Source: Escherichia phage vB_EcoM_PTE-Eco05
Reading direction: 5' to 3' (one strand)
Sequence record: PQ306573.1
Length of the DNA: 64,000 bases
The notes under the pieces are model-generated. The model worked only from the letters and a program-made list of their open reading frames with translations. It did not search any database and was not told the DNA's origin. The position numbers and the translations under genes are program-made. Within the stretch, counting starts at the first letter, position 1; every line of letters starts with the position of its first letter. Below are positions 25,732 to 63,367 of this stretch, in pieces.

Positions 25732-25806
25732 GGCCCTGTAGCTCAATGGGAGAGCTGTCAGCTCATAACTGATAGGTAGCTGGATCGAAACCAGCCAGGG
25801 CCACCA
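25732..25806 (+). tRNA. tRNA with CAU anticodon (Met, or Ile if lysidine-modified)
   Basis: Hand fold: 7-bp acceptor GGCCCTG/CAGGGCC, D-arm GCTC..GAGC, anticodon loop CTCATAA, T-arm GCTGG-ATCGAAA-CCAGC, encoded CCA. Confidence 0.8.
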
Positions 25807-25812
25807 AACAAA

Positions 25813-25884
25813 CGGTGCATCGTATAAAGGTTATTACGGGGAGCTGTTAACTCCTTTATCTTGGTTCGAGTCCAAGTGCGCCAG
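25813..25884 (+). tRNA. tRNA-Asn (GUU) candidate
   Basis: Anticodon stem GGGAG/CTCCT with loop CTGTTAA; T-arm CTTGG-TTCGAGT-CCAAG; acceptor has one 1-72 mismatch; no encoded CCA. Confidence 0.55.
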
Positions 25885-25929
25885 TAATTTAAACGAAGTA
25901 AATTAAGTGCTCTATCCAAATAATAAATA

Positions 25930-25948
25930 CTCCTATATTTTATAGGAG
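25930..25948 (+). promoter_or_regulatory. hairpin sequestering the Shine-Dalgarno of the endonuclease gene
   Basis: CTCCTATA-TTT-TATAGGAG inverted repeat includes AGGAG 10 nt before ATG 25959. Confidence 0.5.
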
Positions 25949-25958
25949 ATAATTGGTA

Positions 25959-26625
25959 ATGAGCATTTGTAAACATTGTAATATGGAATTTGATATTTCT
26001 AATAAACCTAAAGGATGGATGGCTAACCACACTAGATGGTGTAAATCCAACCCTAAATTGGAATTGTATAAAGAAAGTTCTAAATCAGCCATTGCAGCAA
26101 TGAATAAAGCACGTATAGCTTCAGGTAATTTAAACCAGTATGTTGTATCTAAAAAAGACTGGTGTTCCTGTAGTAATTTCGGAAGAGACTAGACAAAAAT
26201 TGTCAGCCGCTTCATTAGGTAGAGAACACTCTGAGGAATCTAGAATAAAAATATCTAATGCTCTGAAAAAATGGTTGAATGAAAACCCCGATAAACATCC
26301 TTGGAAGAAAAATACAAAATTTAAATCTGTGCCTTGTGAATTTTTGAAATCTAAATTAATAGAAAACGGAATTTCATTTATTGAAGAATACCAACCGGTT
26401 AAAAACCGAGCGTATTGCACGGATATTGCTTTAATAGATAAAAAGATTATTATTGAAGTTAATGGAAACCAACATTACTCCAATCCTAAGAAAAAGATTT
26501 TGGCCCCTTATTATAAAGAACGCCATGATATTATAAAATCATTAGGATGGGAAATATATGAACTTCATTATGCTGAAGTTTATAAAGAAGATATTGTAAA
26601 TAATTTAATTGCCTCTATAGTGTAA
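25959..26625 (+). pseudogene. frameshifted homing-endonuclease-like gene (Zn-finger + NUMOD3-like + DUF559/Vsr-like nuclease domain)
   Basis: Two overlapping frames (25953..26192 and 26140..26625) join at an A6 run near 26151-26156; NUMOD3-like SEETRQKLSAASLG and SEESRIKISNALK; C-terminal IIEVNGNQHY...ERHDIIKSLGWEIYEL resembles DUF559. Confidence 0.6.
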
Positions 26626-26686
26626 TGGATAGCATATAATCATTCTAAGGTTAATGGTGAGAGTTCAAATCTTTCTAGAGGCACCA
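26611..26686 (+). tRNA. tRNA-Arg (UCU)
   Basis: Acceptor GCCTCTA/TAGAGGC, anticodon loop ATTCTAA, T-arm GAGAG-TTCAAAT-CTTTC, encoded CCA; overlaps last 15 nt of the upstream ORF. Confidence 0.75.
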
Positions 26687-28795: not shown

Positions 28796-29023
28796 ATGGC
28801 TAAAGTTAGTATTGATGTCGTTGATTATGAATACACAGAAGAAGTTATTCGCAACCGCCACCCTGAAGTTCGTATCGATTCAGTCCAAGATTCCAAGTTC
28901 TGGACAACTGAGCTTAATCTGAGTGGTCCTTATGAAGCTGTTAAGAAGTTCATGGTTGAAGAATACTGCGAAGGCATGCACCCCGAAGACGCCAAGTTTT
29001 ATGTCAATTTGATTAAAAAATAA
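28796..29023 (+). CDS. small hypothetical protein
   Basis: 75-aa ORF. Confidence 0.6.
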   Translation: MAKVSIDVVDYEYTEEVIRNRHPEVRIDSVQDSKFWTTELNLSGPYEAVKKFMVEEYCEGMHPEDAKFYVNLIKK

Positions 29024-29070
29024 TTTACAAACTCTTGAGAGCAGAGTATAATGCTCTCATTGGATAATAA
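29023..29070 (+). repeat. 48-bp exact repeat copy 1 (promoter cassette)
   Basis: ATTTACAAACTCTTGAGAGCAGAGTATAATGCTCTCATTGGATAATAAA, identical to 57616..57663. Confidence 0.85.
29024..29059 (+). promoter_or_regulatory. early promoter (TTTACA-N17-TATAAT) with palindrome around -10
   Basis: -35 29024-29029, -10 29047-29052; TGAGAGCA/TGCTCTCA inverted repeat; part of a 48-bp exact repeat. Confidence 0.7.
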
Positions 29071-29093
29071 ACCACCAATTGAAAGGTAATAAT

Positions 29094-29687
29094 ATGAACA
29101 CACTGAAGAAACTTGTCGAATTCATCCGCACTAAACTGGGTACTGCTATGGCTAAAAATCTGACTGTCGAAGAACAGTATAACGCAGCTGCAGATAAGTT
29201 GATTACCCAAATCAAAGAACTAAAAACGGCTTCTGTTAAATCTATTAATGAAGAAAAACGTATTCGCGAACTTGTTAATGAAAAGAACAAGCAAGCCGCT
29301 TCTAAGGAACGTGAAATTCGTAAGCTCCTGGCTGAAGGACAAGATGTTACCATGCATGCTAAGCTTGGTCTTCTGTATCGTCGAACTGCCGAACAACTTA
29401 ATACAAAAGCTGACGGGTATGCCGCTATGCGAATTGAAATTGCTCGTAAGGTGGTTGAACTTGATGATGCTCGTCAGAATCTGGCAATCAAACTCGAATA
29501 CATTCGTGAAACTCGAGCAGCTAATGCCCTTGGTATCTCTACGGCTGACGATGTAATTGAAATCGCTGCACTGACTAAGGTTGATATCGAAGACACTCTG
29601 ACTCGTGTTGAAACGTTCAATGGCACTCAGCCCGGCGTTGAAACCACTTCTGCTGATGTACAAGAATATATTAACTCTTTGAAATAA
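29094..29687 (+). CDS. coiled-coil protein (possible PspA/IM30-like architecture)
   Basis: 197 aa from [10 protein letters not shown]; long heptad-rich helical sequence; codon usage richer in CTG/CGT than neighbours. Confidence 0.6.
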
Positions 29688-29736
29688 AATAATACGGAGG
29701 ACTCCGGTCCTCCTTTTGGATAATAAAGGAGTTAAC

Positions 29737-30333
29737 ATGCGAAACCAAAATAATGATATTGACTCAATGTTCGAAGAGTTCCGAAATAAGGTAAATCCAC
29801 CTACGTCTTTAGTTGATTCATTACGATATGTCGCAACTGGGCGTAAATGGTACTGGTCGTCTTCTTATGAGACAACTGAATATGCAAATAACCGAAAATC
29901 TTTATTAGCCCCAGGTATTATGATTCATGATATCGGAGCTATTGCTAAACTAGTTGCAGACCATGATATTAGATTTACTGATTTCGTTGCTCCTACGTGG
30001 TCTGTTTGTTGTTTAAACACTGAATGGGAATACATCAGTGAACGTTCAGATGATTACGTAGGCTTTAGAGACAAACTTTTAAGGTCTAACATGTTTTATA
30101 TCGATACTGAAGTTCTAGTCAATAATAAAAAATACTACTTCACTTTAATCGTCGATTCTGAAACTATGTATGAAGGCAAGCCTTTGCTTAAAAGAGTTGA
30201 TGCTTTAAGTGCTATTGATGCTCTTTATGAAACTATGGTTGTTAGTCCTAATTTCACTAACAATTTAATCCTTGAGCAATTTATTATGGAATGTAGAGAA
30301 TATGTCAAAGCCAACCCTGTACATGCCAATTAA
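29737..30333 (+). CDS. hypothetical protein
   Basis: 198 aa from MRNQNNDID after AAGGAG. Confidence 0.6.
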   Translation: MRNQNNDIDSMFEEFRNKVNPPTSLVDSLRYVATGRKWYWSSSYETTEYANNRKSLLAPGIMIHDIGAIAKLVADHDIRFTDFVAPTWSVCCLNTEWEYISERSDDYVGFRDKLLRSNMFYIDTEVLVNNKKYYFTLIVDSETMYEGKPLLKRVDALSAIDALYETMVVSPNFTNNLILEQFIMECREYVKANPVHAN

Positions 30334-30535
30334 GCCATGGGCATACGAATACAAACGTAAATTAATCCCAAACGAAGTACTATTTGGCCCTATTTTAGCT
30401 TTAGCATTTTTAATCTTTATGATTATAGGAGCTGTTTTAGATTCTAGTGAAGTTATATCGTCTGATGCAGTGTTTTTACTTATAGCCGGGTCGTTTATTG
30501 TGCCATTTTTATTAATGCCTATTAATTGGGTGTGA
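30302..30535 (+). CDS. small membrane protein
   Basis: 77 aa; two transmembrane-like segments; start region duplicates that of the 30784 gene. Confidence 0.5.
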   Translation: MSKPTLYMPIKPWAYEYKRKLIPNEVLFGPILALAFLIFMIIGAVLDSSEVISSDAVFLLIAGSFIVPFLLMPINWV

Positions 30536-30694
30536 TATTGGTACCAAGGCCGTCATCACAGAGCCCGATTAAGAGAATGGAAAGTTCAGTGCGCAAAAGC
30601 CCAGTATGATGAAGCTGTTAAAAAGTATGAATATGACGAAGCCATGGAATTCGTTAAGGAGATAAGATGCAAAAGCCTGAACTGAATTTATGCT

Positions 30695-30724
30695 GTTTAC
30701 GCTTCTCAAATGATTAGTTATAAT
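30695..30724 (+). promoter_or_regulatory. early promoter (GTTTAC-N18-TATAAT)
   Basis: In the 250-bp intergenic region upstream of 30784. Confidence 0.6.
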
Positions 30725-30783
30725 GAACTCCTAACTAGACGTGAAAATGAAACAATCGAAAACTTTATTAAGGAATGTAGAAA

Positions 30784-31089
30784 ATGAGTAAGATTATCGA
30801 AATTAAAGTACCAGAGTTTAATGATGCCAAATCCGCTTCAGATGCAATTTATAAACTTCTGAATCAAGCTGAACGTATCGAAGAAGAAGCAACAAAGATC
30901 GCAGACCAATATGCCGTACCATTTTCTGTAGGTGATTATGGTAGCGGTCGTACTTATTATCCTAAGGGTGAAATCGTATCCCAGTGGATGAAAAATGAAA
31001 TTGAAAATAATGGTGGTGATGTTAAGCGTGAAGGTAATGGTTACGTTATTACTGAAGGTGCTTGGGTTTCGTCTTCTGCGTTGTGCTAA
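30784..31089 (+). CDS. small protein, paralog 1 (C-terminal GAWVSSSALC)
   Basis: 101 aa; shares a C-terminal G-W-V-[SA]-S-S-x-x-C motif with the next two ORFs. Confidence 0.65.
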   Translation: MSKIIEIKVPEFNDAKSASDAIYKLLNQAERIEEEATKIADQYAVPFSVGDYGSGRTYYPKGEIVSQWMKNEIENNGGDVKREGNGYVITEGAWVSSSALC

Positions 31090-31098
31090 GGAATCATT

Positions 31099-31371
31099 AT
31101 GTCTAAAGAACAAACCGAACTGGCTGAAGCTGTAGCAAAAATCTATGCAGCTATTGAGGCTGCCAAAGAAATTGCTGATAAACAAAACACAACATTCGAC
31201 TTGTATCCGGCTTATGGTATGGGTGGAACCTATCATTCACCAGGACATCTTAAAGCCGATCTTGAACGTTGTACAAAAAACGGCTATGCTGAATGGGCTG
31301 ACGTTTACCAATACGACTACAACCTGAGCCTTGAAGATGGCGGTTGGGTTGCATCTTCTCACACTTGCTAA
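31099..31371 (+). CDS. small protein, paralog 2 (C-terminal GGWVASSHTC)
   Basis: 90 aa; same C-terminal motif. Confidence 0.65.
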   Translation: MSKEQTELAEAVAKIYAAIEAAKEIADKQNTTFDLYPAYGMGGTYHSPGHLKADLERCTKNGYAEWADVYQYDYNLSLEDGGWVASSHTC

Positions 31372-31380
31372 GGAAACAAT

Positions 31381-31578
31381 ATGTCTCGTGAATTAGATTG
31401 TGCTGTACGTACGGCAGTAGCTGCCCTGGAAAACCTGTTCCAAATTGCAACAGAAGAACGCGAAGAAGTTACATTATGGATTGAAGATAACGCAGGTCTG
31501 AATCTCCAGGACGCGATCTCATTATCCCACAATAGTATCACTATTCAAGGCTGGGTATCATCTAGTTATTCTTGCTAA
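31381..31578 (+). CDS. small protein, paralog 3 (C-terminal QGWVSSSYSC)
   Basis: 65 aa; same C-terminal motif. Confidence 0.65.
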   Translation: MSRELDCAVRTAVAALENLFQIATEEREEVTLWIEDNAGLNLQDAISLSHNSITIQGWVSSSYSC

Positions 31579-31582
31579 AACA

Positions 31583-31612
31583 GTTTACAACAAGATAGGG
31601 CTATGTTATAGT
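31583..31612 (+). promoter_or_regulatory. early promoter cassette (GTTTAC-N18-TATAGT)
   Basis: GGGCTATGTTATAGTAGTCCTATCAAA core. Confidence 0.6.
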
Positions 31613-31640
31613 AGTCCTATCAAATTAAATGGAGTCCACA

Positions 31641-31880
31641 ATGATTTATTACGAAAGTATCGGAACCAAAGTGGTTGTTAAAACCATTACTCGTGAAAAG
31701 TTTGCAAAGATATTCGATATGCGTTATAAAAAATCTGAACACAAAGGCATCCGATTCGAAGATGCGCACTGTACAATTTGCCCTTATAATGAAGACATAA
31801 ACGGTACAATCGTTCCATTGGTAGAGGCTTCACACGATGACCTCTGGGATGAATATGATATCGCATGTCGTGAAATTTAA
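31641..31880 (+). CDS. small Cys-containing hypothetical protein
   Basis: 79 aa from MIYYESIG after GGAG; HCTICP motif. Confidence 0.55.
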   Translation: MIYYESIGTKVVVKTITREKFAKIFDMRYKKSEHKGIRFEDAHCTICPYNEDINGTIVPLVEASHDDLWDEYDIACREI

Positions 31881-31908
31881 GTTAATGAATTAATCCGAGG
31901 AAAATATT

Positions 31909-32865
31909 ATGATGTTAGTTATTGGTTCTCGTGCACTTCACTATCATGGTCTTATTGATTCTAGCGCTATCAAAAATAGCGATTGGGACTTTATTGCGGA
32001 CCAAGGTTCTTGGAATGCATTCAAAAATCAAATGATGGGTGTATATGTCCACCAAGATAACCCTGATGTCCAAATTTTCAAATGCTTCCATAATGGACGC
32101 GAAACTCATTTTGAAGCATATATTGTTCCGGCAATCACTAATGTCCGTGAATTAGTCGGTGAACTCACTCCTGAAGATTTCACGTCTTCTTATGACCTTT
32201 TAAAATACGCCAAGAAAAATTTGACTAAAGACCGTTTGAACGGGTTTTACTGGGCAACTCCTGAGATATGTCTTGCAATTAAGATGTCTCATCGTTTCAA
32301 GAAAAATAATCCATTCTTTTTAAAGACTATGAACCATATTCAGTATCTTCGTGGTAAAGGTGTTACACTGAACGATGAACTTACTGAAATTATGCTGAAA
32401 CGCCAGAAAGAAACCTTGAACTATGCTCACCCAGTTCTTGACACTTCTAAAAGTGCGTTCTTTAAAGATGACATCTATACATATGACCATGATACTATTC
32501 ATGAAGCCATTGCACTAACAGACCGTCCAGCGTATACATTTTATATGAAAGATGGTTCTGAAGTCATGACCTCACGCGAGAAGTTCGAATCGTTACCGGA
32601 AATGATTAAACTGGCCGGTGTATACGAAGAATCATGTGTACTAGCATTAGAACGTTCTCAGATTCCTAATGACTTTAAAATTAACCCTGAAGCCAGTTTC
32701 ATGATGGCATTGGAAAAAGTCTGTACAAGCATCACCTCCGGTTGGTTCCGTGAGTATGCCTGGGAAAACTACAGCAAAGTAGTAAGTATGTACCAAAGCT
32801 TAGGACATGATGATTACGTCAAACGTTTCAAACAAAATTTCCATATTGTAAAACCTTTCAAATAA
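31909..32865 (+). CDS. hypothetical protein with N-terminal nucleotidyltransferase-like G-S...D-x-D motif
   Basis: 318 aa; VIGSRALHYHGLIDSSAIKNSDWDF near N-terminus; spacing is longer than the canonical Pol-beta NTase motif, so tentative. Confidence 0.55.
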   Translation: MMLVIGSRALHYHGLIDSSAIKNSDWDFIADQGSWNAFKNQMMGVYVHQDNPDVQIFKCFHNGRETHFEAYIVPAITNVRELVGELTPEDFTSSYDLLKYAKKNLTKDRLNGFYWATPEICLAIKMSHRFKKNNPFFLKTMNHIQYLRGKGVTLNDELTEIMLKRQKETLNYAHPVLDTSKSAFFKDDIYTYDHDTIHEAIALTDRPAYTFYMKDGSEVMTSREKFESLPEMIKLAGVYEESCVLALERSQIPNDFKINPEASFMMALEKVCTSITSGWFREYAWENYSKVVSMYQSLGHDDYVKRFKQNFHIVKPFK

Positions 32866-32877
32866 TTTCGCAAAACT

Positions 32878-32907
32878 GTTTACACAATTATAGGATTATG
32901 TTATAGT
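32878..32907 (+). promoter_or_regulatory. early promoter cassette (GTTTAC-N18-TATAGT)
   Basis: GGATTATGTTATAGTAAGTCCTATTAAAACA core. Confidence 0.6.
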
Positions 32908-32936
32908 AAGTCCTATTAAAACATGAGGAGAATATT

Positions 32937-33242
32937 ATGAAATTAGGCGAAACCAACCGAATTGGTCTTTTAACAATATTTGCATCACCATTTTACGCAG
33001 CTCTTTCTGTTGCAGTATTACAAAAGGCTTACAGTATGGATGGTGTTCCTGGTTTTGTATTCTTATCACCGTTTTTATTATTCGTCGGAGCTTTGTTATT
33101 ATATGCCACGACTAGTTTCGACCATAATGTCTGGGTCAATTATAAATGTAAATTGACCGAAGAAGAACACGCAGAAGCTCGTAAAAAAGCTATTGAATCT
33201 ACCAATCTAGAAAATTTCATTAAAGAATGTCGAGGAAAATAA
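32937..33242 (+). CDS. small membrane protein
   Basis: 101 aa, two hydrophobic helices. Confidence 0.6.
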   Translation: MKLGETNRIGLLTIFASPFYAALSVAVLQKAYSMDGVPGFVFLSPFLLFVGALLLYATTSFDHNVWVNYKCKLTEEEHAEARKKAIESTNLENFIKECRGK

Positions 33243-61439: not shown

Positions 61440-63124
61440 AATCATTTAAATTAAATCGTGTTCGTTATAAAAATATAATGTCTGTTGGGCAAAATTTTAT
61501 CGATATCCAATTAGATAAAGTCCAAAAGACCTTAATCACAGGTAAAAATGGCGGTGGTAAATCTACGATGTTAGAAGCCATTACTTTCGGACTTTTCGGT
61601 AAACCATTTCGTGATGTTAAGAAAGGACAAATCATTAATAGCACGAACAAGAAAGAGCTCTTAGTTGAGCTTTGGATGGAATTCGATGATAAAAAATACT
61701 TCATTAGACGTGGCCAAAAGCCCAATATTTTCGAAATCTCCGTTGACGGTGTTCGTCTCGATGAATCTGCCAGCAGTCGTGACTTCCAAGAAGAATTTGA
61801 ACGTAGCATCGGAATGTCATATGCGTCTTTTAAACAAATCGTTGTGCTTGGGACGGCAGGGTATACCCCTTTCATGGCTCTTAGCACCCCTGCTCGTAGA
61901 AAACTTGTCGAAGACCTTTTAGAAGTCGGCACACTCGCTGAAATGGATAAAATCAATAAGTCTCAAGTTCGCGAACTTAATTCTCAGGGACAAGTTCTTG
62001 ATGCCAAGAAAGATGGTATTATCCAACAAATTAAGATTTATAACGAGAATATCGAACGTCAAAAGAAATTATCTGGTGATAATGTAGCGCGTCTACAGAA
62101 TATGTATGACGACCTAGCCAAAGAAGCTCGTTCATTAAAAGCAGAAATCGAAGAAGCTAATGAGCGACTACTTAATATCGTTCTTGATGAAGACCCTACT
62201 GAGGCATTCAACAAGATAGGACAAGAAGCATTCTTGATTAAATCTAAAATTGACTCATATAACAAAGTTATTAAGATGTATCATGATGGCGGTACATGTC
62301 CTACTTGTGCATCACAGTTGCACCAGGGTGATCCTATTGTCTCTAAGATTACCGATAAGCTTCATGAATGTAATCACTCATTCGAGCAACTTACATGTCA
62401 CAGAGATAATCTGAGTGTCCTAGTGGACGAATATAGAGCTAATGTTAAGACTAAACAGGACCTTGCATCTGATATTCGTACCAAGAAACAAGCAATGATT
62501 GCCACTATTGATAAAGCTAAGAAAGTTAAAGCTGCAATAGAACAAGCCTCGGCGGAATTTATCGACCATGCCGATGAGATAGCTTTGCTTCAAAAAGAAC
62601 TTGATAAAATCATTAAAACAAAATCGGATATCGTTCTTGAAAAATACCATCGTGGTATTATCACAGATATGTTAAAAGATTCTGGTATTAAAGGTGCTAT
62701 CATTAAAAAATATGTGCCTCTGTTCAACAAGCAGATTAACCATTATCTTAAAATCATGGAAGCTGATTACGTGTTTTCTATTGACGAAGAATTCAATGAA
62801 TCTATAAAATCACGTGGTCGTGAAGAGTTCAGTTATGCTTCATTTAGTCAAGGCGAAAAAGCACGCATTGATATCGCGTTGTTGTTTACATGGCGAGATA
62901 TTGCTGAAAAGGTCTCTGGTGTTAAAATCAACACTCTGATTCTTGATGAGGTTTTTGATGGGGCAGTTGATTCTGAAGCTGTTAAGGCTATAGATACCAT
63001 TCTTGGAAGTTTACAAAATACTAACGTGTTCATTATTTCTCATAGGGACCATGACCCTCAACGTTATGGACAACATTTGCAAATGAGCAAAGTTGGACGA
63101 TTTACTGTAATGACTGTTTCATAA
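61436..63124 (+). CDS. 46: recombination ATPase subunit gp46 (Rad50-like)
   Basis: 562 aa; Walker A GKNGGGKST, central coiled coil with CPTC zinc hook, C-terminal signature/Walker B region LILDEVFD. Confidence 0.93.
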   Translation: MKSFKLNRVRYKNIMSVGQNFIDIQLDKVQKTLITGKNGGGKSTMLEAITFGLFGKPFRDVKKGQIINSTNKKELLVELWMEFDDKKYFIRRGQKPNIFEISVDGVRLDESASSRDFQEEFERSIGMSYASFKQIVVLGTAGYTPFMALSTPARRKLVEDLLEVGTLAEMDKINKSQVRELNSQGQVLDAKKDGIIQQIKIYNENIERQKKLSGDNVARLQNMYDDLAKEARSLKAEIEEANERLLNIVLDEDPTEAFNKIGQEAFLIKSKIDSYNKVIKMYHDGGTCPTCASQLHQGDPIVSKITDKLHECNHSFEQLTCHRDNLSVLVDEYRANVKTKQDLASDIRTKKQAMIATIDKAKKVKAAIEQASAEFIDHADEIALLQKELDKIIKTKSDIVLEKYHRGIITDMLKDSGIKGAIIKKYVPLFNKQINHYLKIMEADYVFSIDEEFNESIKSRGREEFSYASFSQGEKARIDIALLFTWRDIAEKVSGVKINTLILDEVFDGAVDSEAVKAIDTILGSLQNTNVFIISHRDHDPQRYGQHLQMSKVGRFTVMTVS

Positions 63125-63178
63125 ACGCTTTAACACGATGTGGTTATAATGACCACATCAAATTAAATGGAGAACAAC

Positions 63179-63367
63179 ATGGAGTATTCAACTGGACAAC
63201 ATCTTCTCGTTGTCCCTGAAATTAAAAAATATGTTTTGACCAATACGTTTTCAGGTGAAGAACATATTGTCACTGAACAAATGCTCAAATCTGCTTTTAA
63301 AGATGAGTATAATAAAATAATGTCTAATCGCAATTCCGCATGGACAGTTACCGACTTCTACGAATAA
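63179..63367 (+). CDS. small hypothetical protein (45.2 position)
   Basis: 62 aa from MEYSTGQHLL after GGAG. Confidence 0.55.
   Translation: MEYSTGQHLLVVPEIKKYVLTNTFSGEEHIVTEQMLKSAFKDEYNKIMSNRNSAWTVTDFYE

Follow-up and report, generated by a model that had tools for sequence, protein, structure and literature searches.

A short C-terminal tag on adjacent small phage genes and its linkage to a nucleotidyltransferase-like gene

Why should three neighbouring small phage genes, which differ in length and in most of their sequence, close on the same few residues directly before the stop codon? This question is raised by a locus of Escherichia phage vB_EcoM_PTE-Eco05 (PQ306573.1), of which we analysed a stretch of 64,000 nucleotides, here called the window. 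The window belongs to a Mosigvirus, an RB69/JS98-type T-even phage, and Mosigvirus genomes match the region at 97% identity, in agreement with the T4-like assignment given in an earlier note made from the sequence alone. The same note had described three consecutive ORFs of 101, 90 and 65 aa, and we recovered them with the same coordinates, lengths and endings. Paralog 1 (ORF1; 30784–31089, + strand; 101 aa, pI 4.7) ends in TEGAWVSSSALC, that is, in GAWVSSSALC followed by the stop codon; this tag occupies positions 31057–31086 (+), and its W94, S97 and C101 are invariant in the alignments (A1, A4). Paralog 2 (ORF2; 31099–31371, +; 90 aa, pI 4.7) ends in EDGGWVASSHTC, with GGWVASSHTC before the stop codon (31339–31368, +) and with W83, S86 and C90 invariant among 113 aligned sequences (A5). 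Paralog 3 (ORF3; 31381–31578, +; 65 aa, pI 4.2) ends in TIQGWVSSSYSC, with the tag QGWVSSSYSC before the stop codon (31546–31575, +), as read from the ORF translation and a profile comparison. The three ORFs are separated by spacers of 9 nt, each of which contains an AAGGAA ribosome-binding site.

The description of these genes as a tandem triplet of paralogs holds in part. ORF1 and ORF2 are supported as paralogs by sequence comparison, since they align in BLASTP (E = 9e-5) and both match the family HMM of phrog_899 (E 5.2e-22 and 4.8e-19, respectively). ORF2 is a canonical member of this family, with the hairpin motif AYGMGGTYHSPG, and ORF1 is a variant member, with DYGSGRTYYPKG at the corresponding hairpin. 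ORF3, however, has a short body that lacks the YG.G.TY motif and falls into a separate PHROG, phrog_4882 (E 1.2e-36). Because only its last 10 residues align with the ORF1/ORF2 family in a profile-profile comparison (hhalign probability 90.8, E 1.2e-6), its kinship to the other two is demonstrated for the tag alone. A tblastn search with paralog 1 gave matches in 391 phage records. The annotation of RB69 gives this gene as a truncated, tagless protein of 71 aa (P0002), so that this copy, at least, can be dispensed with.

A consensus scan identified a promoter-like site on the + strand at 30696–30724 (TTTACG-17-TATAAT, 10/12 matches), 60 nt upstream of ORF1, which resembles the T4 early-promoter consensus and would make the triplet a group of early genes. 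The same scan placed a second promoter-like site at 31584–31612 (+; TTTACA-17-TGnTATAGT), which separates paralog 3 from the two genes that follow. The nearer of these, at 31629–31880 (+), encodes an 83-aa protein of phrog_3723 with homologs in phages PEi20 and Bp7. It is conserved in some T4-like genera only and is absent from the corresponding loci of Myxococcus phage Mx1 and of uncultured phages, and is probably not core to the gene module described below.

We defined a strict tag, W.[SA]S[ST]..C directly before a stop codon, and examined all stop-to-stop ORFs of at least 40 codons on both strands of the window. Exactly three of the 566 ORFs carry the strict tag, and these are the triplet, adjacent and co-oriented; from residue frequencies, the chance of the strict tag is estimated at around 1e-7 per ORF, as an order of magnitude. 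A HMMER search with a profile of mixed subfamilies (A3) returned 21 proteins, several of which were false positives with FG-GAP-like repeats, and a subfamily profile (A4) was far more informative. The tag is common to at least 227 protein clusters (at 90% identity) from diverse phages, in which the W, the S and the terminal Cys are essentially invariant. Among 117 listed homologs (P0091–P0207), 105 fit the exact tag pattern, a further 9 deviate at a single Ser, and in a few the Cys is followed by one more residue. Apart from W, S and C, the alignments of canonical members show a single invariant element, the YG.G hairpin. The tag is kept in T4-like phages of Klebsiella, Enterobacter, Edwardsiella, Yersinia, Pectobacterium, Citrobacter, Aeromonas and Acinetobacter, and also occurs in a Phapecoctavirus, a jumbo Erwinia phage, phage Mx1 and uncultured phages.

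Across many phage lineages, then, the tag is the most conserved element of these proteins, and hundreds of homologs keep it where a chance motif, as the earlier note had pointed out, would lack conservation in orthologs. Variants with other spacing occur, such as a shorter W-x-x-S-S-Cys ending. Moreover, the tag is found on bodies which show no other detectable similarity, some of them up to about 150 aa long. Judging from these comparisons the tag is portable, in that bodies diverge or get replaced and the tag stays. The proteins that bear it are small (60–150 aa) and acidic; the median pI of the family is 4.3.

An AlphaFold2 model of paralog 2 (pLDDT 95.1, pTM 0.83) comprises a helix (residues 3–29), a β-hairpin (32–46) with YGMGG at its turn, a second helix (48–60), a strand (81–85, GGWVA) and a short terminal turn (86–89) that leads to Cys90. 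In the predicted fold of canonical members a long N-terminal helix lies on a three-stranded sheet, to which the tag contributes the last strand and the terminal turn; the tag is thus modelled within the fold (pLDDT about 85) and not as a floppy tail. A helical N-terminus, proposed in the earlier note for all three proteins, is therefore predicted for ORF2, and for ORF1 and ORF3 it may be expected from their sequences. Structure comparison found no solved relative of the paralog 2 model, searches of Pfam, NCBIfam, PADLOC and PDB sequences with the three ORFs returned sub-threshold noise only, and no literature was found on the tag or on its gene linkage, in keeping with the previous statement that the motif lies outside characterised families.

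At 331 nt after the end of ORF3 begins a gene for a 318-aa protein (31909–32865, +) with the Pfam domains DUF7277 and DUF7275 (E 3.5e-27 and 3.8e-79), which also matches phrog_2141 (E 4e-150). This downstream gene, the key context of the triplet, was absent from the earlier note. Its homologs in other phages are 290–350 aa long, and the catalogue entries concerned (phrog_899, phrog_4882, phrog_2141, DUF7277 and DUF7275) carry no functional annotation. The N-terminal motif VIGSRAL...NSDWDFIA fits the signature of the Pol-β type of nucleotidyltransferase (NTase), hG[GS]-x(9–13)-Dh[DE]h followed by a third carboxylate on a later strand, here in the form hGS...DxD...E. In an alignment that includes actinophage versions (A8), G6, S7, D25 and D27 are invariant and E69 nearly so, with 9–17 residues from GS to D, so that the signature and the later Glu hold across the enzymes of proteobacterial and actinobacterial phages. 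The best hhalign matches, to E. coli Cca (E 0.23) and GlnE (E 0.13), are non-significant and lie on the catalytic NTase motifs. No Pfam NTase family matched at E ≤ 10, PDB profile searches gave no match, and a single-sequence AlphaFold model was unusable (pLDDT 37.7). Homologs in Acinetobacter phages were annotated as putative nucleotidyltransferases by independent annotators. We therefore call the protein nucleotidyltransferase-like, an assignment read from one short motif. In its C-terminal domain, H128, H194, D195 and H198 are invariant and E240, E241, E248 and R249 are conserved. Despite this H...HD pattern the Pfam HD profile does not match DUF7275, and the spacing from H to HD is longer than is typical of HD-domain phosphohydrolases.

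The linkage between the two kinds of gene is strong and directional. At 80 IMG/VR enzyme loci, we found the strict tag on 132 of the 1186 ORFs that lie upstream on the same strand, on none of the 1234 downstream ORFs and on none of the 3358 ORFs of the opposite strand. Phages have one to six tag genes, on the same strand as the enzyme gene and immediately upstream of it. Tag ORFs accompany 26 of 30 enzyme clusters (at 60% identity), the flanking neighbourhoods of which are otherwise unrelated. Starting instead from the small proteins, the enzyme gene lies 0–1.4 kb downstream in all eight context look-ups, and it follows each of the 30 YGMGGTY/tag ORFs that have at least 2 kb of downstream sequence. 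These last ORFs were located through a degenerate DNA pattern encoding YGMGGTY, which also matched another, unrelated family (about 230 aa) that was left out. In record counts per genus, paralog 1 never exceeds the enzyme. The syntenic e-region of T4 has neither tag genes nor the enzyme, and T4 e.2, found where the triplet lies here, is unrelated to it. Phapecoctaviruses had appeared tagless from one IMG/VR lineage, a reading ruled out by Mt1B1_P17, where three tag genes lie directly upstream of the enzyme gene.

Of 50,697 phage records, 733 contain the enzyme, and bacterial genomes yielded 9 loci among 185,579 species, mostly on MAG contigs. We conclude that a conserved gene module, essentially confined to phages, is present here, with the three ORFs as its small-protein half and the DUF7277+DUF7275 protein as the other. 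Actinophages (ClubL, Wakanda) and one proteobacterial phage lineage have the enzyme without tag genes, so that its core activity does not depend on them. Co-variation of the invariant Cys272 of the enzyme with the tag genes was considered and rejected, as the tagless L063-type enzymes keep this residue. The neighbourhoods of the module are rich in accessory and counter-defence genes (Acb1, Gad2, macro domain, ADP-ribosyl glycohydrolase, Sir2, NAPRTase). A 'sulfurtransferase' annotated in phage F27 is an e.4-like membrane protein outside the module, and the annotation looks spurious.

What could the tag do in such a module? The earlier suggestion of a shared targeting, modification or interaction signal gains support from the conservation of the tag, its portability and its linkage to the enzyme, and we infer that it may act as a docking or acceptor signal which joins diversified early proteins to the enzyme. 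In the reading that we favour, with a probability of roughly 45%, the Pol-β-type NTase domain would recognise the free C-terminal tag and transfer a nucleotide, or some other group in phosphodiester linkage, to one of the tag serines or, possibly, the terminal cysteine. One enzyme could in this way arm or switch a set of diversified client proteins early in infection, whose variable bodies would be directed at host or defence targets. We infer each of these steps, from the physical interaction through the covalent modification and its acceptor residue to the targets further downstream. Several observations count against this reading: the NTase assignment of the enzyme comes from a short motif, some phages have the enzyme but no tag genes, RB69 does without a tagged paralog 1, the tag lies inside the fold in the paralog 2 model, which is less typical of an acceptor peptide, and a promoter-like site of its own separates paralog 3 from the enzyme gene. 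A more far-reaching version, which we consider doubtful, is that of a dedicated phage protein-tagging system, in which the Pol-β-like enzyme would covalently modify the encoded W-x-S-S-S-x-x-Cys tag and so activate or re-target an array of effectors in host takeover; the modification could be nucleotidylylation, or a new group built on the terminal Ser and Cys. If true, this 'tag and client array' logic would have no described counterpart in viruses.

The small proteins could instead be non-covalent regulators or specificity adaptors of the enzyme, a proposal that we find rather improbable. Here the tag would insert into the enzyme, in a pocket or at a metal centre such as the conserved His/Asp/Glu cluster of DUF7275, and the enzyme would be held inactive in the manner of an antitoxin-bound toxin or steered to its targets through the variable bodies. 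It is less likely again that the tag serves as a built-in cap, structural or metal-binding, on autonomous acidic early effectors, host-takeover or anti-defence proteins that are possibly nucleic-acid mimics, and that the enzyme lies next to them by co-inheritance in an accessory island. Such effectors would suit the predicted place of the tag as last strand and turn of a well-predicted fold, the strong acidity of the family, the counter-defence genes nearby and the tolerance of RB69 for a truncated paralog 1. Co-inheritance nevertheless leaves unexplained the fixed order and strand in the 26 of 30 enzyme lineages with unrelated flanks, the presence of the enzyme beside every tag gene that has enough flanking sequence, and the survival of the tag when bodies are exchanged.

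Tandem small, precursor-like genes directly upstream of a single enzyme also bring to mind RiPP, mycofactocin or pearlin-like precursors, the C-terminal Ser and Cys of which would be processed, to an AviCys-type ring or a released molecule, the enzyme doing the tailoring or activation. The S-x-x-C-COOH spacing of the tag matches the AviCys-forming ends of epidermin-type peptides. We nonetheless hold this to be very unlikely, as the Pfam domains of the neighbouring genes reveal no dehydratase, HFCD decarboxylase, radical-SAM enzyme, cyclodehydratase, protease or exporter nearby, the pattern of a constant 'core' and a variable 'leader' is the reverse of that in typical RiPPs, the putative precursors are predicted to be well-folded proteins of 60–150 aa, and short variants such as W-x-x-S-S-C lack the S-x-x-C register. 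That the motif is a coincidence, or that the ORFs are not genes, has a negligible probability and is refuted by the strong PHROG matches, the 391 phage records, the conservation in hundreds of homologs and the restriction of the tag to three adjacent, co-oriented ORFs of 566, together with the confident structure prediction.

The small-protein family and the enzyme are both widespread and both labelled as of unknown function. Seen as parts of a single module that a short, invariant C-terminal tag unites, these anonymous early genes yield a hypothesis that biochemistry can test. If correct, modification of the tag by the enzyme would give a function to two Pfam DUFs, provide a new short recognition tag that might be usable as a tool, and explain why small genes duplicate and diversify beside a highly conserved enzyme. 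It would also single out proteins of therapeutic phages (T4-like, Phapecoctavirus and Acinetobacter phages) as candidate effectors of host takeover or counter-defence.

Several known systems resemble parts of this module. Tandem small genes before one enzyme and an invariant Ser/Cys C-terminus are shared with RiPP arrays (prochlorosins, epidermin-type peptides, MftA, pearlins), but the phage modules lack the defining tailoring-enzyme families, by Pfam domains of nearby genes, and consist of folded domains with a constant C-terminus and a variable N-terminus, not of leader-core peptides; they belong neither to the RiPPs nor to the aminovinyl-cysteine peptides. The ubiquitin-like and sulfur carriers (ThiS, MoaD) are likewise set apart, by their β-grasp fold, C-terminal Gly-Gly and E1-like adenylating partner, a combination that the phage module does not show. 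As regards the acidic anti-restriction DNA mimics (Ocr, ArdA, Arn), the triplet proteins have a pI of 4.2–4.7, and searches by sequence and fold gave no match.

The layout of a small-protein gene followed by that of an NTase-like protein (about 300 aa, with a helical C-terminal domain) is also found in type VII MNT-HEPN and in the AbiEii/MenT DUF1814 modules, and in MNT-HEPN the NTase covalently modifies its protein partner. The phage module, in contrast, has no NTP_transf_2, DUF1814 or HEPN profile or PADLOC match and no Rx4-6H motif in its small proteins, and bacterial genomes hold just 9 loci among 185,579 species, so that we do not place it in the type VII, AbiE or MenT systems. Unlike toxin-antitoxin modules, it is found in lytic phage genomes, with the small partner expanded to as many as six diversified copies. 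In CitX-CitD and MdcG-MdcC (EC 2.7.7.61), an enzyme of the nucleotidyltransferase class loads a small carrier protein, acidic and of about 100 aa, with a prosthetic group, which is phosphodiester-linked to a serine. Neither partner of the phage module has detectable homology to these proteins, no lyase or decarboxylase genes are associated with it, and its conserved serines sit in the C-terminal W-x-S-S-S-x-x-C tag. GlnD-PII offers a functional analogy: GlnD, a uridylyltransferase and uridylyl-removing enzyme for the small signalling protein PII, has a Pol-β-type NTase domain followed by a conserved His/Asp domain, as the phage enzyme would have, and by this analogy the small phage partner would undergo reversible nucleotidylylation at a hydroxyl group. 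The best-supported mechanism here, in which an NTase would act on its cognate small proteins, is an already known sort of system; if the chemistry were to differ from this, the module would be categorically new. The tag-array architecture is new, and neither partner fits any characterised family.

Three small tandem ORFs on the plus strand, ORF1 (30784-31089, 101 aa), ORF2 (31099-31371, 90 aa) and ORF3 (31381-31578, 65 aa), end in GAWVSSSALC, GGWVASSHTC and QGWVSSSYSC, exactly at the coordinates and with the lengths given in the earlier note. The spacers between them are 9 nt long, an AAGGAA ribosome-binding site precedes each, and these are the only three of the 566 window ORFs of at least 40 codons to match the strict form of the C-terminal tag, W.[SA]S[ST]..C directly before the stop codon. 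The note had taken all three for paralogs, which by sequence is demonstrable for ORF1 and ORF2 (BLASTP E = 9e-5; both match phrog_899) but not, beyond the tag, for ORF3 (phrog_4882), of which the last ten residues alone align with the ORF1/2 family in profile-profile comparison (probability 90.8, E 1.2e-6). ORF2 has the canonical family form, ORF1 is a variant (DYGSGRTYYPKG) and ORF3 lacks the hairpin motif. Promoter-like sites, both consensus matches only, lie upstream of ORF1 (TTTACG-17-TATAAT, 30696-30724) and past ORF3 (31584-31612), the latter upstream of an 83-aa ORF and the enzyme gene discussed below; we take both to resemble the T4 early-promoter consensus. The 83-aa ORF (phrog_3723, 31629-31880), which separates the tag genes from the enzyme gene, has the conserved segment RFEDAHC.I.PYNED, and is present also in PEi20 and Bp7 and missing from the module of distant phages.

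The phage is a Mosigvirus, a T-even phage of the RB69/JS98/HX01 type, and positions 29000-33000 are 96-97% identical to many genomes of that type. The triplet region is the counterpart of the variable e.2-e.8 stretch of T4, with tRNA genes on one side and nudE/e on the other. Three tRNA genes (Met-CAT, Asn-GTT and Arg-TCT, 25732-26686) lie ~4-5 kb upstream of the triplet, at a position where some close relatives are annotated with Met and Arg tRNA only. An e.4-like membrane-protein gene (30272-30664) carries an in-frame TGA at 30533-30535, GGA in the close relative G2469, which shortens the protein from 130 to 87 aa; since the frame runs on intact to the normal stop, the TGA reflects a recent nonsense mutation or else an error in sequencing. 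An e.3-like membrane-protein gene, whole (119 aa) in phages mogra and F27, is deleted in G2469 and also here, where its last ~25 codons remain (30700-30786, ending in NELLTRRENETIENFIKECRK); the stop of this remnant overlaps the ATG of ORF1, and the ORF1 promoter-like site is situated within it. Several small membrane proteins nearby end in a second recurring motif, F-[IV]-x-x-C-R-[KGR] (for example NFIKECRGK, EFVIDCRKIK and FIDDCRRARK), at 32937-33242 and 30272-30664 of the window, in the T4 locus (L003:4958-5715) and in loci L005 and L006 of other phages. T4 e.3 and e.4 are members of this set, the motif is displaced by one residue in e.4-type relatives (EFVKEIRCKSLN), and the set looks like a further family of paralogs whose tail is conserved. 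Far from the module, a 54-codon Cys-rich ORF (63055-63219, plus strand) has the loosely tag-like ending FNWTTSSRCP; it does not match the strict pattern and is probably unrelated to the tag family.

The tag is a real, non-random feature, widely conserved well beyond the T4-like phages, and the probability that it reflects chance is practically nil. A tblastn search with ORF1 matched 391 phage records, and two to six adjacent ORFs per locus share the ending in loci from Klebsiella, Enterobacter, Edwardsiella, Pectobacterium, Citrobacter and Yersinia phages, Aeromonas phages of three genera, Acinetobacter phages, a Phapecoctavirus and a jumbo Erwinia phage. A profile search with the ORF1/2 type gave 227 clusters at 90% identity. 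The canonical order is a long N-terminal helix (..EAE.IADE.G..F.F), AYGMGGTYYP, a variable, W/S-rich and often very acidic linker, and a C-terminal GWVSSSxxC. An alignment of 113 sequences is invariant at both glycines of the hairpin, at the W and one S of the tag, and at the closing C; the last position is nearly always Cys, with one residue beyond it in rare variants. Missing from the window are a class ending in GFW[YF]SSSM..C and a subfamily of 71-78 aa with two conserved cysteines (L004:3572-3805, L005:3294-3527, L007:3246-3461, L009:3211-3429 and proteins P0005-P0071), in which the motif occurs twice, as internal DW[LQ]SS[SD]CYGE and terminal W-x-x-S-S-C, suggesting that W-x-S-S-x-C is a repeatable unit. 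The RB69 reference genome has an ORF1 ortholog (P0002, RB69ORF139c) annotated as 71 aa; its sequence diverges after residue 68 (SQWYEK) and lacks the tag, probably through a frameshift.

Tag genes form arrays and, in many phage backgrounds unrelated to one another, are linked almost obligatorily, in fixed order and orientation, to a single, highly conserved enzyme. In the window this enzyme, a 318-aa protein with Pfam DUF7277 and DUF7275 (31909-32865), begins 331 nt downstream of ORF3, and a homolog lies downstream of the tag genes in every related locus. Aeromonas phages keep the two together although the cluster sits elsewhere, by nrdD/49 or RNA ligase. When distant small proteins were the starting point, each of the eight contexts looked up had a co-oriented DUF7277/DUF7275 gene 0-1.4 kb downstream, in backgrounds as different as uncultured phages with PolB/RecA/DnaB or PolA replication modules, Myxococcus phage Mx1, and contigs with Acb1, ADP-ribosyl glycohydrolase or NAPRTase genes. 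When ORFs of 80 IMG/VR loci centred on the enzyme were sorted by side and strand, the strict tag was carried by 132 of 1186 upstream on the same strand, by 0 of 1234 downstream of or overlapping the enzyme gene and by 0 of 3358 on the opposite strand; most apparent misses have looser tags (e.g. WVQSSC, WRPSSQNC, WYNSSESC). After single-linkage clustering at 60% identity of the enzymes from these and the other enzyme loci analysed, tag ORFs were upstream in 26 of 30 clusters. In the reverse test, a degenerate DNA pattern for YGMGGTY recovered 41 tag-bearing ORFs, and the enzyme followed all 30 whose sequence extended 2 kb or more past the ORF (25 by pattern, 5 by inspection); an unrelated ~230-250 aa family with YGMGGTY, ending in IGRVVAIVRKV (L125, L126, L131-L133, L147 and other IMG/VR sequences), was left out. 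The enzyme occurs without tag genes in actinophages (Gordonia ClubL, Streptomyces Wakanda) and one proteobacterial phage lineage, and is thus able to stand alone, whereas the tag proteins essentially never do. Cellular genomes of 185,579 species gave nine enzyme loci, mostly on MAG contigs or in probable prophages.

Module neighbours in unrelated phages (L021 (Mx1), L018, L115, L118, L119, L121, L103) often have an NAD/ADP-ribose or counter-defence theme: macro domain, HopBF1-like kinase, Gad2, Acb1, ADP-ribosyl glycohydrolase, NAPRTase, Sir2 and a putative ADP-ribosyltransferase. In T4-like phages a few genes separate the module from nudE, which is downstream of it. RNA ligase or polynucleotide kinase lies close to the module in phages of Aeromonas and Erwinia, and in ClubL the enzyme gene adjoins a tRNA cluster.

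The enzyme is nucleotidyltransferase-like by motif. G6, S7 and A9, D25-x-D27 (9-17 residues on) and a Glu further along, E69, are retained in alignments with the actinophage versions included; at sequence level they form the hG[GS]...DxD...E signature of Pol-beta-type nucleotidyltransferases, and annotators of Acinetobacter phages independently labelled it a putative nucleotidyltransferase. The helical C-terminal domain keeps K125, H128, K139, F184, F185, H194, D195, H198, E240, E241 and A-L-E-R (246-249). Comparisons by hhalign with E. coli Cca and GlnE were not significant (E 0.23 and 0.13), and the best local matches coincide with catalytic motifs (Cca residues 1-30; SSDIDLIF of GlnE). A Pfam search gave no family besides DUF7277 and DUF7275, and a PDB sequence search no relative.

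The earlier proposal that the fixed tail is a shared targeting, modification or interaction signal gains support, the tag being short, terminal and invariant, portable across bodies and linked to a partner enzyme. Functional coupling of some kind between tag proteins and enzyme is likely, and we infer that the tag is the element by which the small proteins engage it. We tentatively favour (probability roughly 0.45) a reading in which the nucleotidyltransferase-like domain would dock on the tag and attach a phosphodiester-linked modification to it, one enzyme serving early client proteins that have diversified. Against such a modification stand the lineages in which the enzyme is alone, the apparently truncated RB69 ORF1, and the predicted structure of ORF2. 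The AlphaFold2 model (113-sequence alignment; pLDDT 95.1, pTM 0.83, very confident) has a helix (3-29), a beta-hairpin (32-46, YGMGG at the turn), a second helix (48-60) and GGWVA as a third strand (81-85), followed by a terminal turn (SSHT) and Cys90, so that the tag is modelled as structured rather than floppy.

Alternatively, the small proteins may act on the enzyme non-covalently, as its regulators or adaptors, which we consider rather unlikely. They could also be autonomous effectors, acidic as the window's three proteins are (pI 4.2-4.7; family median 4.3), with the tag as a structural or metal-binding cap; beside the near-obligate linkage, we give this still less weight. That they are RiPP-, mycofactocin- or pearlin-like scaffolds seems very improbable.

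Both the small proteins and the enzyme fall in catalogued, uncharacterised families (phrog_899, phrog_4882, phrog_2141, DUF7277 and DUF7275), and full-text literature searches with family and ORF names, motif strings and keywords, most subscription journals being outside their coverage, returned nothing relevant. The module proteins failed the tests that define type VII and AbiE toxin-antitoxin systems, RiPPs, ubiquitin-like carriers and Phd/YefM antitoxins. For HD-domain phosphohydrolases, comparison with DUF7275 gave invariant H128, H194-D195 and H198 and conserved E240, E241 and E248, an H-to-HD spacing longer than is typical, and no Pfam HD hit; for acidic DNA mimics, it gave acidic small proteins and no match in sequence or fold. 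With the partner enzyme, the idea of a shared signal takes a sharper form, and function can now be tested directly; the tag modification proposed here would resemble the action of GlnD on PII, of MNT on HEPN or of CitX on CitD.
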